From a virus, in the UHGV virus genome UHGV-0247914: 10,208 bases of DNA. One strand, written 5' to 3'. Below are positions 4,019 through 10,208 of the stretch, piece by piece. The notes beneath the pieces are model-generated. The model did no database searches. It saw only the letters and a list, made by a program, of their open reading frames with translations, and had not been told where the DNA came from. Every line of letters starts with the position of its first letter. Position 1 is the stretch's first letter. The position numbers and the translations under genes were made by a program.

Positions 4019-4603
4019 ATGAAAAGTATCCAGGACGTCCGCAGGCAAAATCTCAACGACTTGATCGACCGTGAATTCAATGGTGTTCAGACGCGGATGG
4101 CAGAAAAACTTGGAACTCAGGCAAATCTGGTAAACCGCTGGGCTCTTGGCAAGAAGGTTATCGGCGACCAGGTTGCGCGAAAAATTGAAGCTGCCGCCAA
4201 TAAACCCCGTAACTGGCTTGATATCGATCGCTCGCTTTCTCAGGAAGGTTTTCAGCCTGTCGGCCCAAGCGACATTGGTCAGCTGGCAGCTCACAACCTG
4301 GAACGCTGGATGAGTGAAAGCCGCGACCTTTCAACTCAGGGAAAACTTCACCGCGCATCCGGCGTCGCCCAGGTGACAATCAGTCGCCTGTTAAACAATG
4401 AGGTCAGCGTTTCCATTTCCACCCTGGAGAATGTTGCATCCGCATTCGGGCGTCACGGATATGAACTACTGATTCACCCGCACGACCCTGCGACTATCAA
4501 CTATGACCGCTCGCGCTACGCATTGTTACCCGAAACCGAGAAAGCAAAGATCGAAAGTTACATTGAATTTGTCATCAACCAGAACGAAAAAAACAAACAA
4601 TAA
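4019..4603 (+). CDS. Repressor-like regulator with two HTH domains (CI position)
   Basis: 194 aa. HTH 1 is about residues 20-70 (TRMAEKLGTQANLVNRWALGKKVIGDQVARKIE); HTH 2 is about residues 110-150 (HRASGVAQVTISRLLNNEVSVSISTLENVASAFG). No S24 peptidase (LexA-like) motifs were seen. First ATG has no good SD within 5-10 nt. Confidence 0.7.
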   Translation: MKSIQDVRRQNLNDLIDREFNGVQTRMAEKLGTQANLVNRWALGKKVIGDQVARKIEAAANKPRNWLDIDRSLSQEGFQPVGPSDIGQLAAHNLERWMSESRDLSTQGKLHRASGVAQVTISRLLNNEVSVSISTLENVASAFGRHGYELLIHPHDPATINYDRSRYALLPETEKAKIESYIEFVINQNEKNKQ

Positions 4604-4624
4604 AATCATACTCTTCAGTAAGTA

Positions 4625-4650
4625 AGCCGCCTTCTGGCGGCTTTTTTATT
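4625..4650 (+). terminator. Rho-independent terminator after the repressor gene
   Basis: AGCCGCC-TTCT-GGCGGCT (7-bp stem) followed by TTTTTTATT. Confidence 0.8.
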
Positions 4651-4660
4651 GCCTATACTA

Positions 4661-4675
4661 TTACCTAATGGGTAA
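4661..4675. promoter_or_regulatory. Operator-like palindrome TTACC-TAATG-GGTAA (perfect)
   Basis: With flanks aTTACCtaatgGGTAAt; 20 bp upstream of the -35 of the PL-like promoter. Confidence 0.5.
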
Positions 4676-4694
4676 TTTTTTTAACTCATATCTA

Positions 4695-4723
4695 TTGACA
4701 TCAAACCAAATACGCATAATTAT
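4695..4723 (+). promoter_or_regulatory. Putative PL-like promoter for the recombination/integration operon
   Basis: Consensus -35 TTGACA at 4695-4700, 17-bp spacer, -10-like AATTAT at 4718-4723. The palindrome at 4723-4737 abuts the -10 and covers the start region. Confidence 0.5.
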
Positions 4724-4737
4724 TACCTCAACGGTAA
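4723..4737. promoter_or_regulatory. Operator-like palindrome TTACC-TCAAC-GGTAA (perfect)
   Basis: Overlaps the -10/+1 region of the PL-like promoter. Confidence 0.5.
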
Positions 4738-4756
4738 CAGACCGAGGTAACAAGTT

Positions 4757-4909
4757 ATGCAGTGGAAAATCATCAACGGTTGGTACTGCGTTACTGCATG
4801 CGGATTCATGAGCTGGAAGTTCCGCACCTTACAGGAAGGCATTAAGTGGGCTTTCGTCAGCAAAGAAGCTCGCGATGTAGCCAACGATAACGAGATATGG
4901 GAGGGCTGA
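4757..4909 (+). CDS. Small ORF (50 aa), possible first gene of the plus-strand operon
   Basis: ATG at 4757 to TGA at 4907-4909 (MQWKIINGWYCVTACGFMSWKFRTLQEGIKWAFVSKEARDVANDNEIWEG). GAGGT lies 9 nt upstream. Not in the ORF track and not recognisably similar to anything I know. Confidence 0.3.
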   Translation: MQWKIINGWYCVTACGFMSWKFRTLQEGIKWAFVSKEARDVANDNEIWEG

Positions 4910-4911
4910 TA

Positions 4912-5211
4912 ATGAACGTTAATCAGCAGAAAAATCTTCAAAAAATCATGCTGGCATTCGACAAGGACTACCGCCTGTCAGAACAGCTATATGACCGACA
5001 AGTTGAACTGATTGAGAGCATCCGACTTCATCAACTGTCCTCAACTTTCGACGTTGTAACAGGCAAAGGCGTTCGTCAGGAAGTGCTGGAGGCTGCTAAA
5101 GACAGCCCTGAGTTCGAAGAACTGATGGATGCCTACCGGCGCGAGGCAATGGCAATTATAGCGCGCTGGGATCTGGCGGATCAGCTTGATGGACAGAGGG
5201 ACGCGGCATGA
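4912..5211 (+). CDS. Hypothetical protein (99 aa)
   Basis: ATG at 4912 is preceded by GGGAGGG with 6-nt spacing; the track's 4897 start is a less likely upstream ATG. Stop overlaps the next start as ATGA. Confidence 0.55.
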   Translation: MNVNQQKNLQKIMLAFDKDYRLSEQLYDRQVELIESIRLHQLSSTFDVVTGKGVRQEVLEAAKDSPEFEELMDAYRREAMAIIARWDLADQLDGQRDAA

Positions 5212-6029
5212 AACCGGGAATTTATTTCGACATCAGCAACGAAGACTACCACGCCGGTGACGGCGTGAGTAAGTCGCAACTGGACATGGTTGCCAAGAAT
5301 CCGGCGCTTCTTAAATGGGTTCAGGCAGCACCAGAAGACGAAGAGAAAAAGTCTGCACTGGATATGGGAACCGCATTGCACTGTCTGCTTCTGGAGCCTG
5401 GAGAATTCGACAAACGCTTCATTGTTTCACCGAAGTTCGATCGTCGGACGAAACAAGGTAAAGCTGACGAAGAAGCATTTCTTCGTGATGTAGCGGATAT
5501 GGGGATTACGGTACTTGATGCCGAGCAGTGGCGGAAACTGGAGCTGATGCGTGATAGCGCAATGGCTCACCCGGCGGCACGCTGGATGCTGGAAGCACCT
5601 GGTTACTGCGAAGCATCAATGTACTGGAACGATGAAGAGACGGGTGAGTTGTGCCGAATTCGTCCAGACAAATGGCTGAACGAGCACAACGTGATCGTCG
5701 ACGTGAAAAAGGTTGCAGATATGGACCGTTTTGCACGTCACATCGAGGAATTCCGCTACCACGTGCAGGACGCAATGTACCGCGAAGGCGCAATGAGGGT
5801 TACTGGTCAGCCGCATGGTTTTTTCTTTCTTGCCGTGAGCGAAAGCATTGATTGTGGTCGGTATCCGGTACGCGTGTTCGGGCTGGATGCGCCGGATGTC
5901 GATGCCGGGCACGCTCTGTTCCGCCGGGATCTGAATACCTATCACGAATGCCGCATCAGCGATGAATGGGGCGGCGTGGAAATTATTAAACGCCCTGAGT
6001 GGGCACGCAAACAGGATATGTACGTATGA
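5208..6029 (+). CDS. PD-(D/E)xK exonuclease (RecE-like, partner of the annealing protein)
   Basis: 273 aa with RPDKW...VIVDVKKVADMD, a PD...D-x-K nuclease core. GAGGGA RBS. ATGA overlaps at both ends (5208-5211 and 6026-6029). Confidence 0.7.
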   Translation: MKPGIYFDISNEDYHAGDGVSKSQLDMVAKNPALLKWVQAAPEDEEKKSALDMGTALHCLLLEPGEFDKRFIVSPKFDRRTKQGKADEEAFLRDVADMGITVLDAEQWRKLELMRDSAMAHPAARWMLEAPGYCEASMYWNDEETGELCRIRPDKWLNEHNVIVDVKKVADMDRFARHIEEFRYHVQDAMYREGAMRVTGQPHGFFFLAVSESIDCGRYPVRVFGLDAPDVDAGHALFRRDLNTYHECRISDEWGGVEIIKRPEWARKQDMYV

Positions 6030-6943
6030 GCAACGAAATTGCAATCACCAATGATGTGTTGGCTATTCGGGGAATCGATGAAGTTACATGGAGCGCTCTG
6101 AAAAACAGTATTTACCCTGGGGCAAAAGATGAATCGGTAATGATGGCAGTCGATTACTGCCGGGCGCGTCAACTCGATCCTCTTCTTAAGCCGGTACACC
6201 TGGTACCAATGAGTGTTAAAGACTCGAAGAGTGGAAAGAATGAATGGCGCGACGTGGTCATGCCTGGCATTGGACTTTATCGCATTCAGGCCTACCGTTC
6301 CGGCGATTACGCAGGCGCTAATGAACCTGAGTTCGGTCCAGATGTAACACAAACGCTTTCAGGCGTGGAGGTTACCTTCCCTCAGTGGTGTAAGTACACC
6401 GTCAGCAAGCGAATGGCAAGCGGGGAAATCGTAGAGTTTAGCGCCAAAGAATACTGGATTGAGAACTATGCAACTGGGGGGCGTGACACATCGGCACCAA
6501 ATGCCATGTGGAAAAAGCGCCCTTATGCGCAGTTGGCAAAATGCGCAGAGGCACAGGCATTACGTAAAGCATGGCCGGAGATTGGTCAACAAGCCACAGC
6601 TGAGGAAATGGAAGGTAAATATATCGACTCACCTGACATTATTGAACGTGACGTAACTCCAAGAAGTCAGGCAAAGCACGGCACAGCATCCAGCATGAAC
6701 AGTCTGATCAACGCTAAACCAGTGAAAAAGCATGATGAGCAAACGCGTAAAGCGGATAGCCGTGATCCAGAAGAAATGCTGATGGCCTTTACCAGCGCAG
6801 CGATGAATTACAGCACTGTCTCCGAACTGGATAAGGCTTACAAATACATTGCACAAAAACTTTCAGATGATGACGAACTGCTGGCAAAAGCCACCGACGT
6901 TTACAGCGTTCGTCGGGAAGAATTAAACGAAACATCTATGTAA
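6026..6943 (+). CDS. RecT/Bet-family single-strand annealing protein
   Basis: Track ORF starts at 5999; ATG 6026 overlaps the upstream stop as ATGA. PGIGLYRIQAYRSGDYAG and MWKKRPYAQLAKCAEAQALRKAWPE resemble conserved RecT/Bet segments as I recall them. Confidence 0.75.
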   Translation: MSNEIAITNDVLAIRGIDEVTWSALKNSIYPGAKDESVMMAVDYCRARQLDPLLKPVHLVPMSVKDSKSGKNEWRDVVMPGIGLYRIQAYRSGDYAGANEPEFGPDVTQTLSGVEVTFPQWCKYTVSKRMASGEIVEFSAKEYWIENYATGGRDTSAPNAMWKKRPYAQLAKCAEAQALRKAWPEIGQQATAEEMEGKYIDSPDIIERDVTPRSQAKHGTASSMNSLINAKPVKKHDEQTRKADSRDPEEMLMAFTSAAMNYSTVSELDKAYKYIAQKLSDDDELLAKATDVYSVRREELNETSM

Positions 6944-6951
6944 CCACCACC

Positions 6952-6970
6952 GCGGCGCCACACGCGCCGC
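6952..6970 (+). other. GC-rich stem-loop between the recT-like and AlpA-like genes
   Basis: GCGGCGC-cacac-GCGCCGC, a perfect 7-bp stem with no following U tract, 22 nt before the next start codon. Confidence 0.4.
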
Positions 6971-6992
6971 ACTGCAACCAAGAGAGGTATTT

Positions 6993-7241
6993 ATGAAAGG
7001 TGCATTAGATAAGAAGAAACTCCTGGCGGTGGTGCCACTGTCATGGAGCACTATCGACCGTATGGAGCGCGCAGGTGAATTTCCTAAACGCTGGTATATC
7101 ACTGACAAACGCTGCGCATGGAACCGTGACGAAGTTGAGCGTTGGCTTGATGAACGTCAGGCAGCAAGCCCGGCAGAGTTCCAGGGTAAAAAGCCTCCTG
7201 TTCAGCAACGTGTATATCGTCCTGTGAGAAACGCTGCATGA
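6993..7241 (+). CDS. AlpA-family phage regulator / excisionase-like HTH protein
   Basis: 82 aa with AGAGAGG RBS. Pattern LSWSTIDRMERAGEFPKRWYITDKRCAWNRDEVERWL fits the AlpA family signature (S-x-ST ... G-x-FP ... R-x-x-W ... EV-x-x-W). Confidence 0.75.
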   Translation: MKGALDKKKLLAVVPLSWSTIDRMERAGEFPKRWYITDKRCAWNRDEVERWLDERQAASPAEFQGKKPPVQQRVYRPVRNAA

Positions 7242-7350
7242 GTGTGCTGCTAAGGCACTGGAGCAAATGGTCAGGATGGTACTTATTCCTGGCCTCTGTT
7301 TCAGCATGGCTTTATCTGCTGGCATTAATTTTCAGAGAGGGTTGGATTAA

Positions 7351-7650
7351 GTGAGAAAGTTAAGCCGACTTGAAAAATATCACATGAACAAGGTTTCAAT
7401 GCGCCGTCCTTCAAAGGTTATCGCCGTTACTCCTGCGGCGATAGAGATCGAAAAACGCGCGATTGAAAGAGAGAAAAAAGGGCAGTTCCGCATTGCCGCT
7501 CACCTTTGGCTTCAGTGTATGGATGTTGCTTCTGGTGATGTTGAACGTGCAAGGATCGCGGTTCGCAGGGACCAATGTATCACAAAAGGTAACGGCCTTC
7601 GCCGTGGCGACTATAGCGGCATAGGATGTTGTGGGGTGGTTTATGACTAA
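7351..7650 (+). CDS. Small regulator-like protein, tentatively PerC/ANR-like
   Basis: GTG start at 7351 with AGAGGG 9 nt upstream; an alternative ATG is at 7384. GQFRIAAHLWLQCMDVASGDVERARIAVRRDQC resembles the helical hairpin of PerC/ANR-type proteins, from memory only. Confidence 0.45.
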   Translation: MRKLSRLEKYHMNKVSMRRPSKVIAVTPAAIEIEKRAIEREKKGQFRIAAHLWLQCMDVASGDVERARIAVRRDQCITKGNGLRRGDYSGIGCCGVVYD

Positions 7651-8293
7651 GAAATACACACTAATCTATGCAGATCCACCCTGGGTATACCGGGACAAAG
7701 CCGCAGATGGTAATCGCGGTGCCGGTTTTAAATATCCGGTTATGAGTGTGCTGGATATCTGCCGCCTTCCTGTGTGGGATTTGGCCGATGAAAACTGTCT
7801 GTTGGCCATGTGGTGGGTGCCAACACAACCACTCGAAGCACTAAAAGTTGTTGAAGCCTGGGGATTCCGTCTGATGACGATGAAGGGCTTCACGTGGATA
7901 AAATGTGGTAGTCGACAACCAGATAAACTGGTTATGGGTATGGTACACATGACTCGCGCCAATAGTGAAGATTGCCTGTTTGCGGTAAAGGGAAAACTAC
8001 CTACGCGCATTAATGCAGGGATCGTTCAGTCATTTACCGCACCGCGGCTTGAGCATTCAAGAAAGCCAGATATCGTTCGTGAAAAACTTGTGCAATTATT
8101 AGGCGATGTTTCTCGCATTGAACTGTTCGCCCGCCAGACGTCTCATGGCTTCGATGTTTGGGGTAATCAGTGCGAAGACCCGGCAGTGCAACTACACCCT
8201 GGATACGCGTTGGATATCGGCGGATTAACAAATGCATTCAGCAATGCTCCGCTGTCACCAACAGACAACCAGGGGCGGGAGCGTGCAGCATGA
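7643..8293 (+). CDS. MT-A70-family N6-adenine methyltransferase
   Basis: DPPW motif in [14 protein letters not shown] near the N-terminus. Preferred start is ATG 7643 (GGGGTGG upstream); the track's GTG 7631 adds four residues. Stop overlaps the phosphatase start as ATGA. Confidence 0.8.
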
Positions 8294-8949
8294 ACCTATA
8301 TCAACGCATCAATGGCGCTGACTGGTGCAATATCTTCGTCGTCGGCGATCTGCATGGGTGCTACACGCTGCTGATGAACGAACTCGACAAAGTTTCATTC
8401 GACCCGGCGCGCGATTTGCTTATTTCCGTTGGTGACCTTGTTGACCGCGGCGCTGAAAACGTCGAATGCCTGGATTTGATTACTATGCCGTGGTTCCGAG
8501 CTGTTCGTGGCAACCATGAGCAGATGATGCTGGATGCACTGGTCAACGGCGGAAGTTTCGGACATTGGATGTCAAACGGCGGTGGATGGTGGCACCAACT
8601 TGATTCTGAGCAGGATGTGCAACTCAAATACCTTCTGCCAAAGGTTACCAACCTCCCGATGATTATCGAACTGGTTACCGGCAATAAGAAGGTCGTCATC
8701 TGCCACGCAGACTACCCGCACAACGAATACGCATTCGATAAGCCAGTACCGGAAGAAATGGTGATATGGAATCGTGAGCGGGTTAGCGACGCGCAGGACG
8801 GTATTGTCTCGGAGATAACCGGTGCCGATTTGTTCATCTTCGGTCATACGCCAGCACATCACCCACTGGTGTATGCAAACCAAATGTACATCGACACCGG
8901 CGCAGTGTTCTGCGGAAATCTGACGCTTACCAAAGTCCAGGAAGGATAG
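8290..8949 (+). CDS. Ser/Thr protein phosphatase, lambda phosphatase (PPP family) homolog
   Basis: GDLHGC, GDLVDRG and GNHE metallophosphoesterase motifs. Near-colinear with lambda phosphatase as I recall it, with 18 residues before GDLHGC in both. The track's 8170 start is an in-frame upstream extension. RBS GGGAG. Confidence 0.9.
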
Positions 8950-8951
8950 AA

Positions 8952-10208
8952 TTATTTATTACTGTCTTCCATCCACTTCTCAAACTTCGACGGGGAGAAC
9001 GGAATCAGATCCGTATGCTCCCCGTTAATCCAGGAATCAATCATATCGGCCCACTGCTGCAACATGTAGGCGCGCTGTCTGGCGTATTCCGCTTTGTTAT
9101 ATACGGCGCGCACACCTTTCTGCTCGTGTGCCAGAGCCTTTTCAATCCAGTCTGAAGGATAACCAGCCTCATGCAACAATGTACTGGCTGTACGGCGCAT
9201 ATCATGTACAGTAAAATCCTGAATATGCTCACCATCTTCATTTATTATTTTCACCGTTCTGTCGATCAGAGAGTTCAGCGCGGCATTAGATAATGGCTTC
9301 CGGAAATTGTAACGACCAGGAACCAGATATTCACTTCCACCAGCGCACATCTGCAACCCGACTAATATATCCTGTGCCTGTTTAGGCAGGTAAATAACGT
9401 GCGCCCGACTTCCCTTCATGCGGTCTGAAGGAATTGTCCATGTCCATTTTTTAAAATCTATTTCATCCCACGTTGCATTGGTGAATTCTCCCTTACGAAC
9501 CATGGTGATAAGCACCAGCTTTAAAGCCATTTTCATAGTGCCCATAGCACCAATGGCATCCAGCGTGCGGAAGAACAGGCCAATTTCTTCTGGTGTCAGT
9601 GTTCGCTCTCGTGGTTTAAATATGGCGATAGACGAAGGTTTAATGTCAGCCGCAGGATTAAACAAACCATGACCACGGTCATTGGCGTGACGGTATACGC
9701 TGCTGATGATCTCCCTGGCCTGTACTGCTGTTGCCCGACCACCGCGTTCGACAATCCGGTCACACAAATCACGAACCATTGATGTGGTAATTTCAGCCAT
9801 CATTTTGTTGCCAAGAACCGGAAGTATGTCACGGTCGATCACCGCCTGCTTCATTGCGCGGGTACTGTCAGCCAGGATGACGTGTTTCATATAACTGTCG
9901 GTATGTACCGCAAACGTCTCGGCACCACGAATCTTTTTAATACCGTCACGTTTAGCCGCAGCCGGTGACTGGCCTGCTTTAAGCAGCTTCTTTGCAGCAA
10001 TCAGTTCTTCTCGCGCTTCTGCCAGGCTGATACCGTCACGCCCATACTGCCCGATTACCAGTGTTTCGCGGCGACCGTTGATACGGTAGTCATAGCGAAA
10101 CGAGACCGTGCCTGACGTAAGCACAGCTACATACAGCCCGTCACGATCGGAGACCTTGTACAGTTTGTCCTGCGGCTTGAGGTTTTTTAATTTTGTATCG
10201 GTAAGCAC
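8952..10208 (-). CDS. int: Tyrosine integrase, P4-type; N-terminus at the window edge
   Basis: 418-aa ORF running to the last base of the window. Begins VLTDTKLKNLKPQDKLYKVSDRDGLY, typical of P4-family integrases. The C-terminal half has an R...HxxR...Y catalytic-domain layout (HDMRRT, ALAHEQKG, VYNKAEY). Convergent with the phosphatase gene with a 2-bp gap. Confidence 0.9.
   Translation of the reverse strand: MLTDTKLKNLKPQDKLYKVSDRDGLYVAVLTSGTVSFRYDYRINGRRETLVIGQYGRDGISLAEAREELIAAKKLLKAGQSPAAAKRDGIKKIRGAETFAVHTDSYMKHVILADSTRAMKQAVIDRDILPVLGNKMMAEITTSMVRDLCDRIVERGGRATAVQAREIISSVYRHANDRGHGLFNPAADIKPSSIAIFKPRERTLTPEEIGLFFRTLDAIGAMGTMKMALKLVLITMVRKGEFTNATWDEIDFKKWTWTIPSDRMKGSRAHVIYLPKQAQDILVGLQMCAGGSEYLVPGRYNFRKPLSNAALNSLIDRTVKIINEDGEHIQDFTVHDMRRTASTLLHEAGYPSDWIEKALAHEQKGVRAVYNKAEYARQRAYMLQQWADMIDSWINGEHTDLIPFSPSKFEKWMEDSNK

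Follow-up and report, generated by a model that had tools for sequence, protein, structure and literature searches.

Gene content and gene order

The window analyzed here comprises 10,208 nucleotides of a viral genome (UHGV-0247914), with positions counted from its first letter. Three ORFs occupy positions 7351-8949 on the plus strand and encode a 99-aa PerC-domain protein (7351..7650), a 216-aa orphan MT-A70 (class beta) N6-adenine methyltransferase (7643..8293) and a 219-aa lambda-type Ser/Thr (dual-specificity) metallophosphatase (8290..8949). A preliminary description of this DNA had identified these genes and placed them between an AlpA-like gene and int, and we confirmed their coordinates, strand and location as well as the identifications, the latter by matches to Pfam, PHROG and the lambda phosphatase 1G5B. 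The flanking gene on one side (6993..7241, plus strand) encodes an AlpA-type excisionase/regulator, which exceeded the Pfam Phage_AlpA cut-off (23.2 vs 21 bits) and matched PHROG 66 (1.1e-15; labeled 'excisionase and transcriptional regulator'). On the other side, a tyrosine integrase gene (int, 8952..10208, minus strand) is convergent with the operon and lies 2 nt from the phosphatase stop codon. A further ORF, missed in the preliminary description, encodes a 38-aa membrane protein (7238..7354, plus strand; PHROG 17484, 4.7e-27) between alpA, with which it shares an ATGA overlap, and the PerC-like gene. Of the seven annotated relatives examined, six have this ORF annotated, phiV10, epsilon15, SPN1S and Tyrion among them. 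No RNA family was found by Rfam over the whole window.

The window was 99.7% identical to the chromosome of E. coli N10, in which the corresponding prophage adjoins guaA and the three genes are named PerC family, MT-A70 and Ser-Thr phosphatase by PGAP. Two phages, vB_EcoP_PAS61 and BP9, showed 98.2% DNA identity over the full 2161-nt query. Judged by its sequence, the window is a prophage of a phiV10/epsilon15-type (Uetakevirus) temperate podovirus. We tested it for the gene order of the Uetakevirus early-left operon and found each element in place: repressor, terminator, operator-covered promoter, two small ORFs, exonuclease, RecT, AlpA, membrane ORF, PerC-like gene, methyltransferase, variable slot and convergent int. 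Genus-wide, synteny consists of alpA, the PerC-like gene, 0-2 small ORFs, the MT-A70 gene, a variable slot and int, and each Uetakevirus examined (epsilon15, phiV10, TL-2011b, SPN1S, Tyrion, BUCT711 and PAS61) had the PerC-like and MT-A70 genes in this order. The PerC-like gene occurred in 36 phage records, all but one of them from Escherichia, Salmonella, Enterobacter or Klebsiella phages, and every phage with this gene that was examined in detail was of the epsilon15/phiV10 type. The three genes are already known from the annotations of GenBank phages and of hundreds of E. coli genomes, and they belong to well-known families; as first reported, they are of little significance.

The PerC-like protein

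Residues 35-80 of the first protein matched the Pfam PerC family (PF06069) above threshold (30.2 bits vs a cut-off of 22.6, E 5.7e-7), and the ORF also matched PHROG 868, 'transcriptional activator' (1.6e-61). The preliminary description had called it PerC-like or ANR-like; the first label stood and the second did not, the score for the ANR (AraC negative regulator) family NF033650 being 23.6 bits against an NCBIfam cut-off of 32. The gene is closely packed between its neighbors: its GTG start overlaps the stop codon of the 38-aa membrane ORF (GTGA at 7351-7354), and at its other end it shares 8 nt with the start of the methyltransferase gene (ATGACTAA at 7643-7650). A later ATG start is given in the RefSeq annotation of phiV10 and, likewise, by PGAP in E. 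coli N10. The GTG at 7351 is supported by residues Y10 and H11, which lie upstream of two in-frame ATGs and are conserved in at least 90% of 26 homologs.

An AlphaFold model of the protein, built from 26 sequences, was of only moderate confidence (pLDDT 73) and contained one short and three longer helices. When this model was compared with the PDB by Foldseek, TPR/MIT-like structures alone came up, none of them significant (best E 0.32), a PDB sequence search gave nothing meaningful, and neither this protein nor the phosphatase matched any defense-system model in PADLOC. The PerC domain of E. coli YfdN was 29% identical over 49 residues, and with similarity limited to this extent an analogy with Pch, which binds DNA and displaces H-NS, relieving silencing (PMC4764244), is a loose one. 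By that analogy, the PerC-like protein would be a small DNA-binding regulator that displaces H-NS, and it may be functionally tied to the modification gene directly downstream.

The MT-A70 methyltransferase

The second protein matched PF05063 over the whole model (positions 1-172 of 172; 77.6 bits vs a cut-off of 23.9, 1.4e-21). Its DPPW motif (motif IV) is intact at residues 11-14 and stands ahead of the SAM-binding motifs, in the class-beta order, and the segments HSRKPD and RIELFAR toward the C-terminus align with MTA1. The best solved relatives were chains of the ciliate MTA1 DNA 6mA methyltransferase (6.6e-12). In PADLOC, the enzyme matched a Type II methyltransferase model (1e-75), the sole PADLOC match in the set. 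Its neighbors are the PerC-like gene, the phosphatase gene and int, none of which matched a nuclease family; because no restriction endonuclease gene adjoins it, the enzyme is an orphan and not part of a Type II restriction-modification system.

The predicted methyltransferase would place methyl groups on adenines of replicating phage DNA and thereby protect this DNA against restriction by the host. An RNA substrate is suggested instead by the name of the family and by some database labels, such as the 'IME4 RNA methylase' annotation in phage BP9, and METTL3 is among the nearest solved relatives (8e-5). Against this stand the better match to the MTA1 DNA 6mA chains, the PADLOC grouping with Type II DNA methyltransferases and the presence of Dam-type and D12 DNA methyltransferases at the same position in other phages, and we regard RNA methylation as very improbable. 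A literature search on the specificity of the phiV10 methyltransferase and on yfdN/yfdM found no direct functional data.

The lambda-type phosphatase

The third protein scored 58.9 bits (1.2e-15) against Pfam Metallophos, for which the cut-off is 21.5, and its residues 1-217 aligned without gaps to lambda phosphatase (1G5B; 6.7e-100, 67% identity). It contains the motifs that define the lambda-type PPP group (GDxHG, GDxxDRG and GNHE) together with the metal and phosphate ligands of lambda phosphatase. All ten active-site residues checked (D20, H22, D49, D52, R53, N75, H76, H139, R162 and H186) were identical. The catalytic motifs of both predicted enzymes are intact on alignment. NCBIfam equivalog cut-offs did not support orthology with either PrpA (266 vs 326 bits) or PrpB (221 vs 332 bits), and the protein was nearer to phage enzymes than to E. 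coli PrpA/PrpB. At the DNA level it was 78% identical to ppp of phi80. Relatives were found in other early operons, namely the nin regions of lambda, phi80, HK106 and Sf6, and at a different early position in the Klebsiella Uetakevirus BUCT711.

Lambda and P1 can both do without their phosphatase genes, ninI and ppp, respectively (PMC10695390), and the literature searched on the biological role of NinI contained no direct functional data. The predicted phosphatase may be an accessory enzyme without which the phage can grow, taking phosphate off host proteins or 2',3'-cyclic RNA ends and so blunting a host response during lytic growth. An anti-restriction role for the predicted methyltransferase and an anti-signaling role for the predicted phosphatase are reasonable. 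Lambda phosphatase also has 2',3'-cyclic phosphodiesterase activity and serves as the prototype for the phosphatase domain in bacterial RNA-repair Pnkp (PMC2190708), which raises the possibility that nucleic-acid ends or nucleotides, and not proteins, are the substrates here. The enzyme would then be a 2',3'-cyclic phosphodiesterase/phosphomonoesterase healing tRNA or mRNA ends that host anticodon nucleases or toxins cut during infection. Consistent with this activity, residues 41-215 matched the Pnkp phosphatase domain of C. thermocellum (4J6O, 1.1e-8), and the bacterial Pnkp model of NCBIfam (1e-10) and an RNA-ligase PHROG were matched as well. However, the window contains no gene for a kinase or ligase partner, and the free-standing lambda enzyme, a known protein phosphatase, is much the closest match; we consider action on nucleic-acid ends or nucleotides in place of proteins unlikely.

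An early-left operon under operator control

The repressor gene (4019-4603) is followed by a terminator-like hairpin on the plus strand (4624..4643; 8-bp stem with 6 GC pairs, then a T run). This hairpin marks off the early-left operon from the repressor transcript and has a counterpart annotated as a terminator at the same position in phiV10. Downstream, at 4659..4753 on the plus strand, lies a promoter with TTGACA at 4695, a 17-nt spacer and AATTAT ending at 4723. Around it and partly overlapping it are two operator palindromes (TTACC-N5-GGTAA), at 4661-4675 and 4723-4737, and a half-site at 4744-4753. The palindrome motif occurs seven times in the window, compared with 0.14 copies expected. 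Epsilon15 has the same promoter/operator layout, with annotated repressor-binding sites.

The genes that follow, all on the plus strand, form an almost continuous chain. A 50-aa ORF (4757-4909) has a 13-nt overlap with a 104-aa ORF (4897-5211), which is joined by an ATGA overlap to a PDDEXK exonuclease gene (5208-6029), and the latter in the same manner to the recT gene (ATG at 6026, end at 6943), followed by alpA. Stop and start codons overlap at most junctions of the gene run 4897-8949, mostly as ATGA or GTGA. Scanning for consensus elements, we found only one sigma-70-like promoter on the plus strand between the repressor gene and int, that at 4695-4723, and no internal promoter or plus-strand terminator within 4760-8949, in a scan that weak internal promoters could escape.

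On this sequence evidence, the segment 7351-8949 is the distal end of the Uetakevirus early-left operon and not a set of three independent cargo genes. The promoter at 4695-4723 would drive the operon, and the phage repressor, acting at the operator palindromes, would silence it in the lysogen, with release upon infection or induction. Because the operon promoter carries palindromes like the repressor sites of epsilon15, the genes at 7351-8949 are predicted to be off in the lysogen, which makes regulation of host genes in the lysogen a weaker idea. Several points speak against this explanation: the annotation of phage SfV places a dam promoter within its PerC-like gene, the gene in the terminal slot of epsilon15 is annotated as a serotype-conversion factor and would need to be expressed in the lysogen, the phosphatase gene has a higher GC3 than its neighbors, and a consensus-based scan leaves room for weak internal promoters. 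Even so, we consider the early-operon explanation as a whole, with the roles proposed above for the three products, to be probable.

The ATGA overlap between the methyltransferase and phosphatase genes (ATG at 8290, TGA at 8291-8293), described before as coupling the two, is real, but such overlaps are general in the operon and it does not denote a specific coupling. The idea that it marks a dedicated functional pair of these enzymes was rejected, since the same overlap junction joins the methyltransferase gene to a DUF1382 gene in phiV10 and overlaps occur operon-wide.

A variable slot next to int

We surveyed the slot that separates the methyltransferase gene from int in the 80 nearest IMG/VR loci. 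It contained a DUF1382 gene in 53 cases, the phosphatase gene in 21 and an 82-aa ORF together with an Ant-like gene in two. Phosphatase and DUF1382 are exchanged exactly at the ATGA junction, and the last few codons of int are exchanged together with the cargo cassette, leaving clean cassette junctions. No hairpin terminator was found between the phosphatase gene and int, where the junction folds no better than shuffled sequences (z -0.75). The slot is a cargo hot spot with at least three alternative occupants, of which the phosphatase gene is one.

These data bear on the proposal that the three genes are typical morons, acquired independently and expressed from the prophage, which alter the lysogen through methylation of host DNA, dephosphorylation of host signaling proteins and PerC/Pch-like activation of host genes. 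Several observations are in line with it: near-identical phages differ in the content of the terminal slot, which in epsilon15 holds the putative serotype-conversion gene mentioned above, the relatives of PerC/Pch characterized so far are regulators of host genes (PMC4764244, PMC5293775), and the GC3 of the phosphatase gene (0.61) differs from that of its neighbors (0.45-0.46), as expected of recent import. On the other hand, presence/absence between near-identical phages was seen for the phosphatase only, the PerC-like and MT-A70 genes being conserved across the genus and not sporadic. In addition, the consensus scan detected no promoter or terminator belonging to any of the three genes, all of them are translationally coupled to the upstream recombination genes, and the repressor operators at the operon promoter argue against expression from a repressed prophage. 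We consider independently acquired, lysogen-expressed morons an unlikely explanation for the set; what held of the original proposal is the moron-like character of the phosphatase. The slot, being a clean natural cassette site, provides isogenic phages with and without a lambda-type phosphatase, and these are well suited for testing what this long-known enzyme does for a phage.

PerC-like genes are often followed by adenine methyltransferase genes

We collected 201 PerC-like loci and clustered them at 60% identity into 21 clades; the loci were sampled through sequence patterns and the sample is hence biased. An adenine methyltransferase gene was directly downstream in 11 of the 21 clades (151 of 201 loci), mostly with overlapping stop and start codons. 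These enzymes belong to three unrelated Pfam families, MT-A70 (PF05063), Dam (PF05869) and D12 (PF02086), which swap within single PerC clades. For example, a Pseudocitrobacter prophage of the Uetakevirus type has a PF05869-like NPPY enzyme in place of MT-A70 at the same position. Other arrangements 3' of PerC-like genes included fusions with PAPS-reductase or C5-methylase domains, and a DpdA-like transglycosylase gene or a ParB-like gene followed by MT-A70. The pairing was observed in two contexts, directly after the replication genes of lambdoid phages (including SfV, ST64B, mEp460 and F1055) and in the Uetakevirus early-left operon. The same pairing is found in yfdN-yfdM of the cryptic K-12 prophage CPS-53, where the upstream neighbor is yfdO.

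The recurrence of this order across clades, enzyme families and contexts, including the Pseudocitrobacter replacement and the alternative fillings, suggests a two-gene module of a regulator and a DNA-modification enzyme, which is undescribed in the literature searched; we found there no link between PerC and phage methyltransferases, including PerC-plus-Dam arrangements. Such a module would extend the early-operon explanation rather than compete with it. In this module, the PerC-like protein, binding DNA (or mRNA) and translationally coupled to the next gene, would control the expression, timing or targeting of the base-modifying enzyme, or cooperate with it on DNA, whether that enzyme is MT-A70, a PF05869 or D12 Dam, a Dam fusion, or MT-A70 preceded by a DpdA-like or ParB-like protein. 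Several facts weigh against a dedicated module. Ten PerC-like clades (50 loci) lack an adjoining methyltransferase gene, MT-A70 genes occur without a PerC-like neighbor, and small ORFs (DUF1317, wHTH or DndB-like) can intervene between the two genes. The lambdoid cases represent one syntenic position, leaving only about two fully independent contexts, and the Gly-rich C-terminal tail common to linked clades may merely encode the ribosome-binding site of the next gene. With the sampling bias also taken into account, we put the dedicated module at somewhat less than an even chance. The idea that the PerC-like protein is an obligatory methyltransferase subunit was rejected in view of the three unrelated methyltransferase folds with which it pairs and of MT-A70 genes without a PerC-like gene.

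A broader proposal, which we advance tentatively and at a similar level of confidence, is that PerC-domain proteins of the kind seen here are encoded by the conserved first genes of phage DNA-modification modules and are not host-virulence regulators, PerC and Pch of pathogenic E. coli being domesticated offshoots. So far, this family has been known solely from the virulence regulators PerC and Pch; the repeated order offers it a function that can be put to the test, and also hints at how orphan phage methyltransferases may be controlled.

Comparison with known systems

Phage vB_EcoP_PAS61 (OQ921333) belongs to the same genus, has the same gene order with 98% DNA identity and contains an identical block of PerC-like, methyltransferase, phosphatase and int genes. 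PhiV10 (NC_007804, gp36-gp31) likewise shares genus and gene order with the window, but has a 64-aa DUF1382 gene in place of the phosphatase gene and differs in the final codons of int. In lambda (ninI) and phi80, the phosphatase gene is located in the nin region of the rightward operon, whereas in the window it closes the leftward operon and abuts int. It resembles the lambdoid morons bor and lom of lambda in being present or absent among near-identical phages and in adjoining int at the prophage end; unlike them, it is joined to the operon by the ATGA overlap, and neither a promoter nor a terminator belonging to it was detected.

The methyltransferase shares DPPW, a full-length Pfam match and the class-beta motif order with the MT-A70 family (METTL3, ciliate MTA1) and with orphan phage adenine methyltransferases, but its 216 residues leave almost no room for a target-recognition domain, and it is unrelated to the PF05869 or D12 Dam enzymes that fill the equivalent position in other phages. 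The PerC-like protein has the PF06069 core of about 45 residues in common with PerC of the EPEC plasmid pEAF and Pch of EHEC prophages. However, this similarity is distant, the protein has conserved N- and C-terminal parts of its own, and its gene is a conserved phage early-operon gene followed by a methyltransferase gene, outside any virulence regulon. With a small putative regulator gene that immediately precedes a modification gene and overlaps it or is coupled to it, the pair is reminiscent of com-mom of phage Mu and of the C proteins of restriction-modification systems; this is a functional analogy without sequence or fold similarity, in which regulation by the PerC-like protein is suggested by gene order.

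Three genes at the end of an early operon

All three ORFs of the preliminary description were present as described on the + strand of window 7351-8949, and database matches supported their gene calls. The first (7351-7650, +, 99 aa) scored 30.2 bits against Pfam PerC (cut-off 22.6) and was a full-length member of PHROG 868. It had been called PerC/ANR-like; the PerC half of this name holds and the ANR half does not, since its score against the NCBIfam ANR model fell short of the cut-off. The second (7643-8293, +, 216 aa) showed a full-length match to the Pfam MT-A70 methyltransferase family (E 1.4e-21), with a DPPW motif at residues 11-14 and C-terminal HSRKPD and RIELFAR segments that line up with those of ciliate MTA1 and human METTL3. 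The third (8290-8949, +, 219 aa) gave a gapless alignment with lambda phosphatase (1G5B, E 6.7e-100) at 67% identity, and all ten metal, phosphate and catalytic residues checked were conserved. Thus, the catalytic motifs of neither enzyme showed inactivation. The proposed gene names had already been given by PGAP and by phage depositors.

A 2.2-kb region used as query was 99.7% identical to the chromosome of E. coli N10, the nearest E. coli chromosome carrying the prophage, in which the prophage adjoins guaA and int lies at the prophage edge. Of 5426 complete E. coli genomes, 642 contained this region, and in 143 of these the match covered the query with the phosphatase included. Among phages, vB_EcoP_PAS61 and BP9 were 98.2% identical across the full query, and phiV10 and many relatives matched 69% of it. 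PAS61, phiV10, epsilon15, SPN1S, Tyrion and BUCT711 belong to genus Uetakevirus (temperate podoviruses of the epsilon15/phiV10 type); TL-2011b, with the same gene order, has no genus assigned in its record. By tblastn, the PerC-like protein was found near full length in 36 phage records (63-98% identity), 35 of them from phages of Escherichia, Salmonella, Enterobacter or Klebsiella.

Operon organization and probable control

The genes from 4897 to 8949 are arranged head to tail on one strand, with stop/start overlaps at most junctions. The ATGA overlap between the methyltransferase and phosphatase genes was confirmed at 8290-8293; ATGA also joins a 104-aa ORF to the exonuclease gene, the exonuclease gene to RecT (6026-6029) and alpA to a 38-aa membrane ORF, GTGA joins the latter to the PerC-like gene, and the PerC-like gene meets the methyltransferase gene at ATGACTAA. 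These overlaps are therefore a general feature of the operon, and ATGA does not mark a special relationship between methyltransferase and phosphatase. The 38-aa ORF (7238-7354) is conserved, contains a hydrophobic segment (PHROG 17484), and is fused to the PerC-like protein in one database protein (P0087). Exonuclease and RecT are two separate genes in the window (5208-6943); the RefSeq entry for phiV10 gives them as one RecE-RecT fusion protein.

For the stretch from the repressor gene to int, a consensus scan of this strand identified a single promoter (TTGACA-17-AATTAT, 4695-4723, +), located directly beyond the strong terminator downstream of the repressor gene. Consensus scans found neither a + strand terminator before int nor transcription signals belonging to the phosphatase gene itself. 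The promoter is bracketed by TTACC-N5-GGTAA palindromes (4661-4675 and 4723-4737), which resemble in form the repressor operators of epsilon15, where the same layout is annotated as repressor-binding sites. Allowing at most one mismatch per copy, the window contained seven such palindromes (1580, 1642, 3564, 3901, 3949, 4661 and 4723, including the gaps flanking the repressor gene), compared with 0.14 expected. Well away from the immunity region, the copies at 1580 and 1642 occupy the interval separating the DUF1064 gene from the replication P gene. We infer from these signals that the genes probably form the repressor-controlled early-left operon of the phage; expression of its distal genes would follow infection or induction and be off in a stable lysogen. 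No terminator was found between the phosphatase gene and the convergent int gene, and only 2 nt separate the operon end from the int stop (8949-8952). Early transcripts would read antisense into int, which might lower integrase synthesis in lytic growth.

Conserved genes and an exchangeable terminal slot

In every annotated Uetakevirus inspected, the order was alpA, the PerC-like gene, zero to two small ORFs, the MT-A70 methyltransferase, a short terminal gene and convergent int. The 38-aa membrane ORF was annotated in PAS61, phiV10, epsilon15, SPN1S and Tyrion; the annotations of BUCT711 and TL-2011b lack it. Small ORFs between the PerC-like and methyltransferase genes coded for gp30, DUF1317, a wHTH protein or a DndB-like protein. 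The DndB-like (DGQHR) gene, from another family associated with DNA modification, occupied this interval with overlapping starts in an E. coli prophage (L022, 4293-5396) and in Salmonella phage SPN1S (L004, 4020-5015).

The terminal gene is variable: a 59-aa gene annotated as serotype-conversion factor in epsilon15, a 64-aa DUF1382 gene in phiV10, unrelated ORFs of ~60 aa in other relatives, and the phosphatase in the window. Among the 80 closest IMG/VR loci, DUF1382 filled this slot in 53, the phosphatase in 21, and an 82-aa ORF plus an Ant-like anti-repressor gene in 2, the remaining loci being truncated or deleted there. In the last arrangement (loci L016 and L032, ~4940-6200), the 82-aa ORF (PHROG 9805) is ATGA-coupled to the methyltransferase, and a gap of ~300 nt precedes the 216-aa Ant-like protein. 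Alignment with phiV10 showed that the exchange starts right after a shared ATGAA at the methyltransferase stop and ends in the last codons of int (8952-8975). These codons differ between phosphatase phages (...KWMEDSNK) and DUF1382 phages, and L016 has ...KWMAGE, placing the right-hand recombination junction of the cassette inside int.

The closest DNA relative of the phosphatase outside this group was phi80 ppp (78% identity). The nin regions of lambda, HK106 and Sf6 carry homologues, as does P1, and in the Klebsiella Uetakevirus BUCT711 a homologue occupies another early position. The BUCT711 gene (OM816836, 5115-5753; L006 region), a related metallophosphoesterase with 68.5% DNA identity, lies on the other side of the repressor gene; the phosphatase therefore moves between early operons within the genus. 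Because the terminal slot varies and the PerC-like/MT-A70 order is constant, only the phosphatase behaves as mobile cargo. The three genes had been proposed as moron cargo beside int; this applies to the phosphatase, a swapped-in accessory gene, and not to the PerC-like and methyltransferase genes, which are conserved early-operon genes. Together they are not three morons; they are the tail of an early operon in a known, publicly annotated phage type. As originally put forward the finding is ordinary; what deserves following is the natural cassette site next to int and the association of PerC-like genes with methyltransferases.

Predicted functions

The methyltransferase is an orphan enzyme, as no nuclease gene lies nearby, and belongs to a very common prophage family (>2500 relatives). 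Its most economical predicted role is to protect replicating phage DNA from host restriction. A 170-aa Mom-like DNA-modification ORF at 5-517 on the - strand (PHROG 1384, 3.9e-42; 22.6 bits against Pfam Mom, below the cut-off of 27.1) suggests that the phage may carry a second adenine-modifying enzyme in the other early operon. Expression of mom in phage Mu requires adenine methylation.

The phosphatase faithfully reproduces a well-studied enzyme. One option is that it counters host or prophage kinases, examples of such targets being the 933W Stk exclusion system and HipA-type toxins. Lambda and P1 do not require its counterparts ninI and ppp (PMC10695390). Alternatively, it may act on 2',3'-cyclic RNA ends: lambda phosphatase has 2',3'-cyclic phosphodiesterase activity (PMC2190708), and the window protein additionally matches the Pnkp phosphatase domain.

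Mechanistic precedent for the PerC-like protein comes from Pch alone, a distant relative that binds DNA and displaces H-NS (PMC4764244). In the structure model of the PerC-like protein a short helix leads into a three-helix bundle; a PDB search with this model returned no significant match.

PerC-like genes upstream of adenine methyltransferases

We collected PerC-like loci by three pattern scans of IMG/VR and used Pfam, PHROGs and BLAST to assign the genes downstream to families. In this sample, which is biased because loci were chosen via sequence patterns, 201 loci formed 21 PerC-like clusters at 60% identity, and an adenine methyltransferase was directly downstream in 11 of them (151 loci), most with stop/start overlaps of 1-19 nt. 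The pairing was noted in the window itself and among loci L009-L014 and L132-L201. The methyltransferases at this position belong to three unrelated families, MT-A70, PF05869 and D12, which interchange within single clusters. Other fillings included Dam fused to PAPS-reductase or C5-methylase domains, and a DpdA-like transglycosylase followed by MT-A70. Against a strict link, ten clusters (50 loci) had no methyltransferase neighbor, and some MT-A70 genes had no PerC-like neighbor; the sampling bias also counts against it.

Within a wHTH-plus-PerC clade (IMG/VR loci L158-L172 and L185), a ParB-like gene (~430-450 aa) precedes an overlapping MT-A70 gene, an arrangement that looks like a split version of phage ParB-methyltransferase fusions. 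At locus L147 (2692-3351), the MT-A70 gene that follows a YfdN-type PerC gene carries DPAW in place of the catalytic DPPW and may be an inactivated copy. A further point against a strict link is that the Gly-rich C-terminal tail shared by linked PerC proteins may do no more than encode the ribosome-binding site of the next gene; in the window, the 7643 ATG stands 3 nt after the end of GGGGTGG.

The arrangement recurs in several elements. In prophage CPS-53 of E. coli K-12, YfdN, a protein with a PerC domain (36 bits), directly precedes YfdM, which is a fragmentary adenine methyltransferase of family PF05869, not MT-A70. In a Uetakevirus-like Pseudocitrobacter prophage, a PF05869-like NPPY enzyme replaces the MT-A70 of the window. 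PerC-like/methyltransferase pairs follow the replication genes directly in phages SfV, ST64B and mEp460, and Salmonella phage F1055 has a D12-class methyltransferase at the same position. Since the non-Uetakevirus loci checked all lay directly after replication genes (with RusA after the methyltransferase in two), the association spans about two independent genomic contexts. A literature search of limited coverage found no papers tying PerC-like proteins to phage methyltransferases. By analogy with com-mom, the regulator and modification gene pair of phage Mu, we tentatively suggest, with somewhat less than even confidence, that the link is a real functional one and that the PerC-like protein might act as a regulator or helper of the adjacent modification gene.
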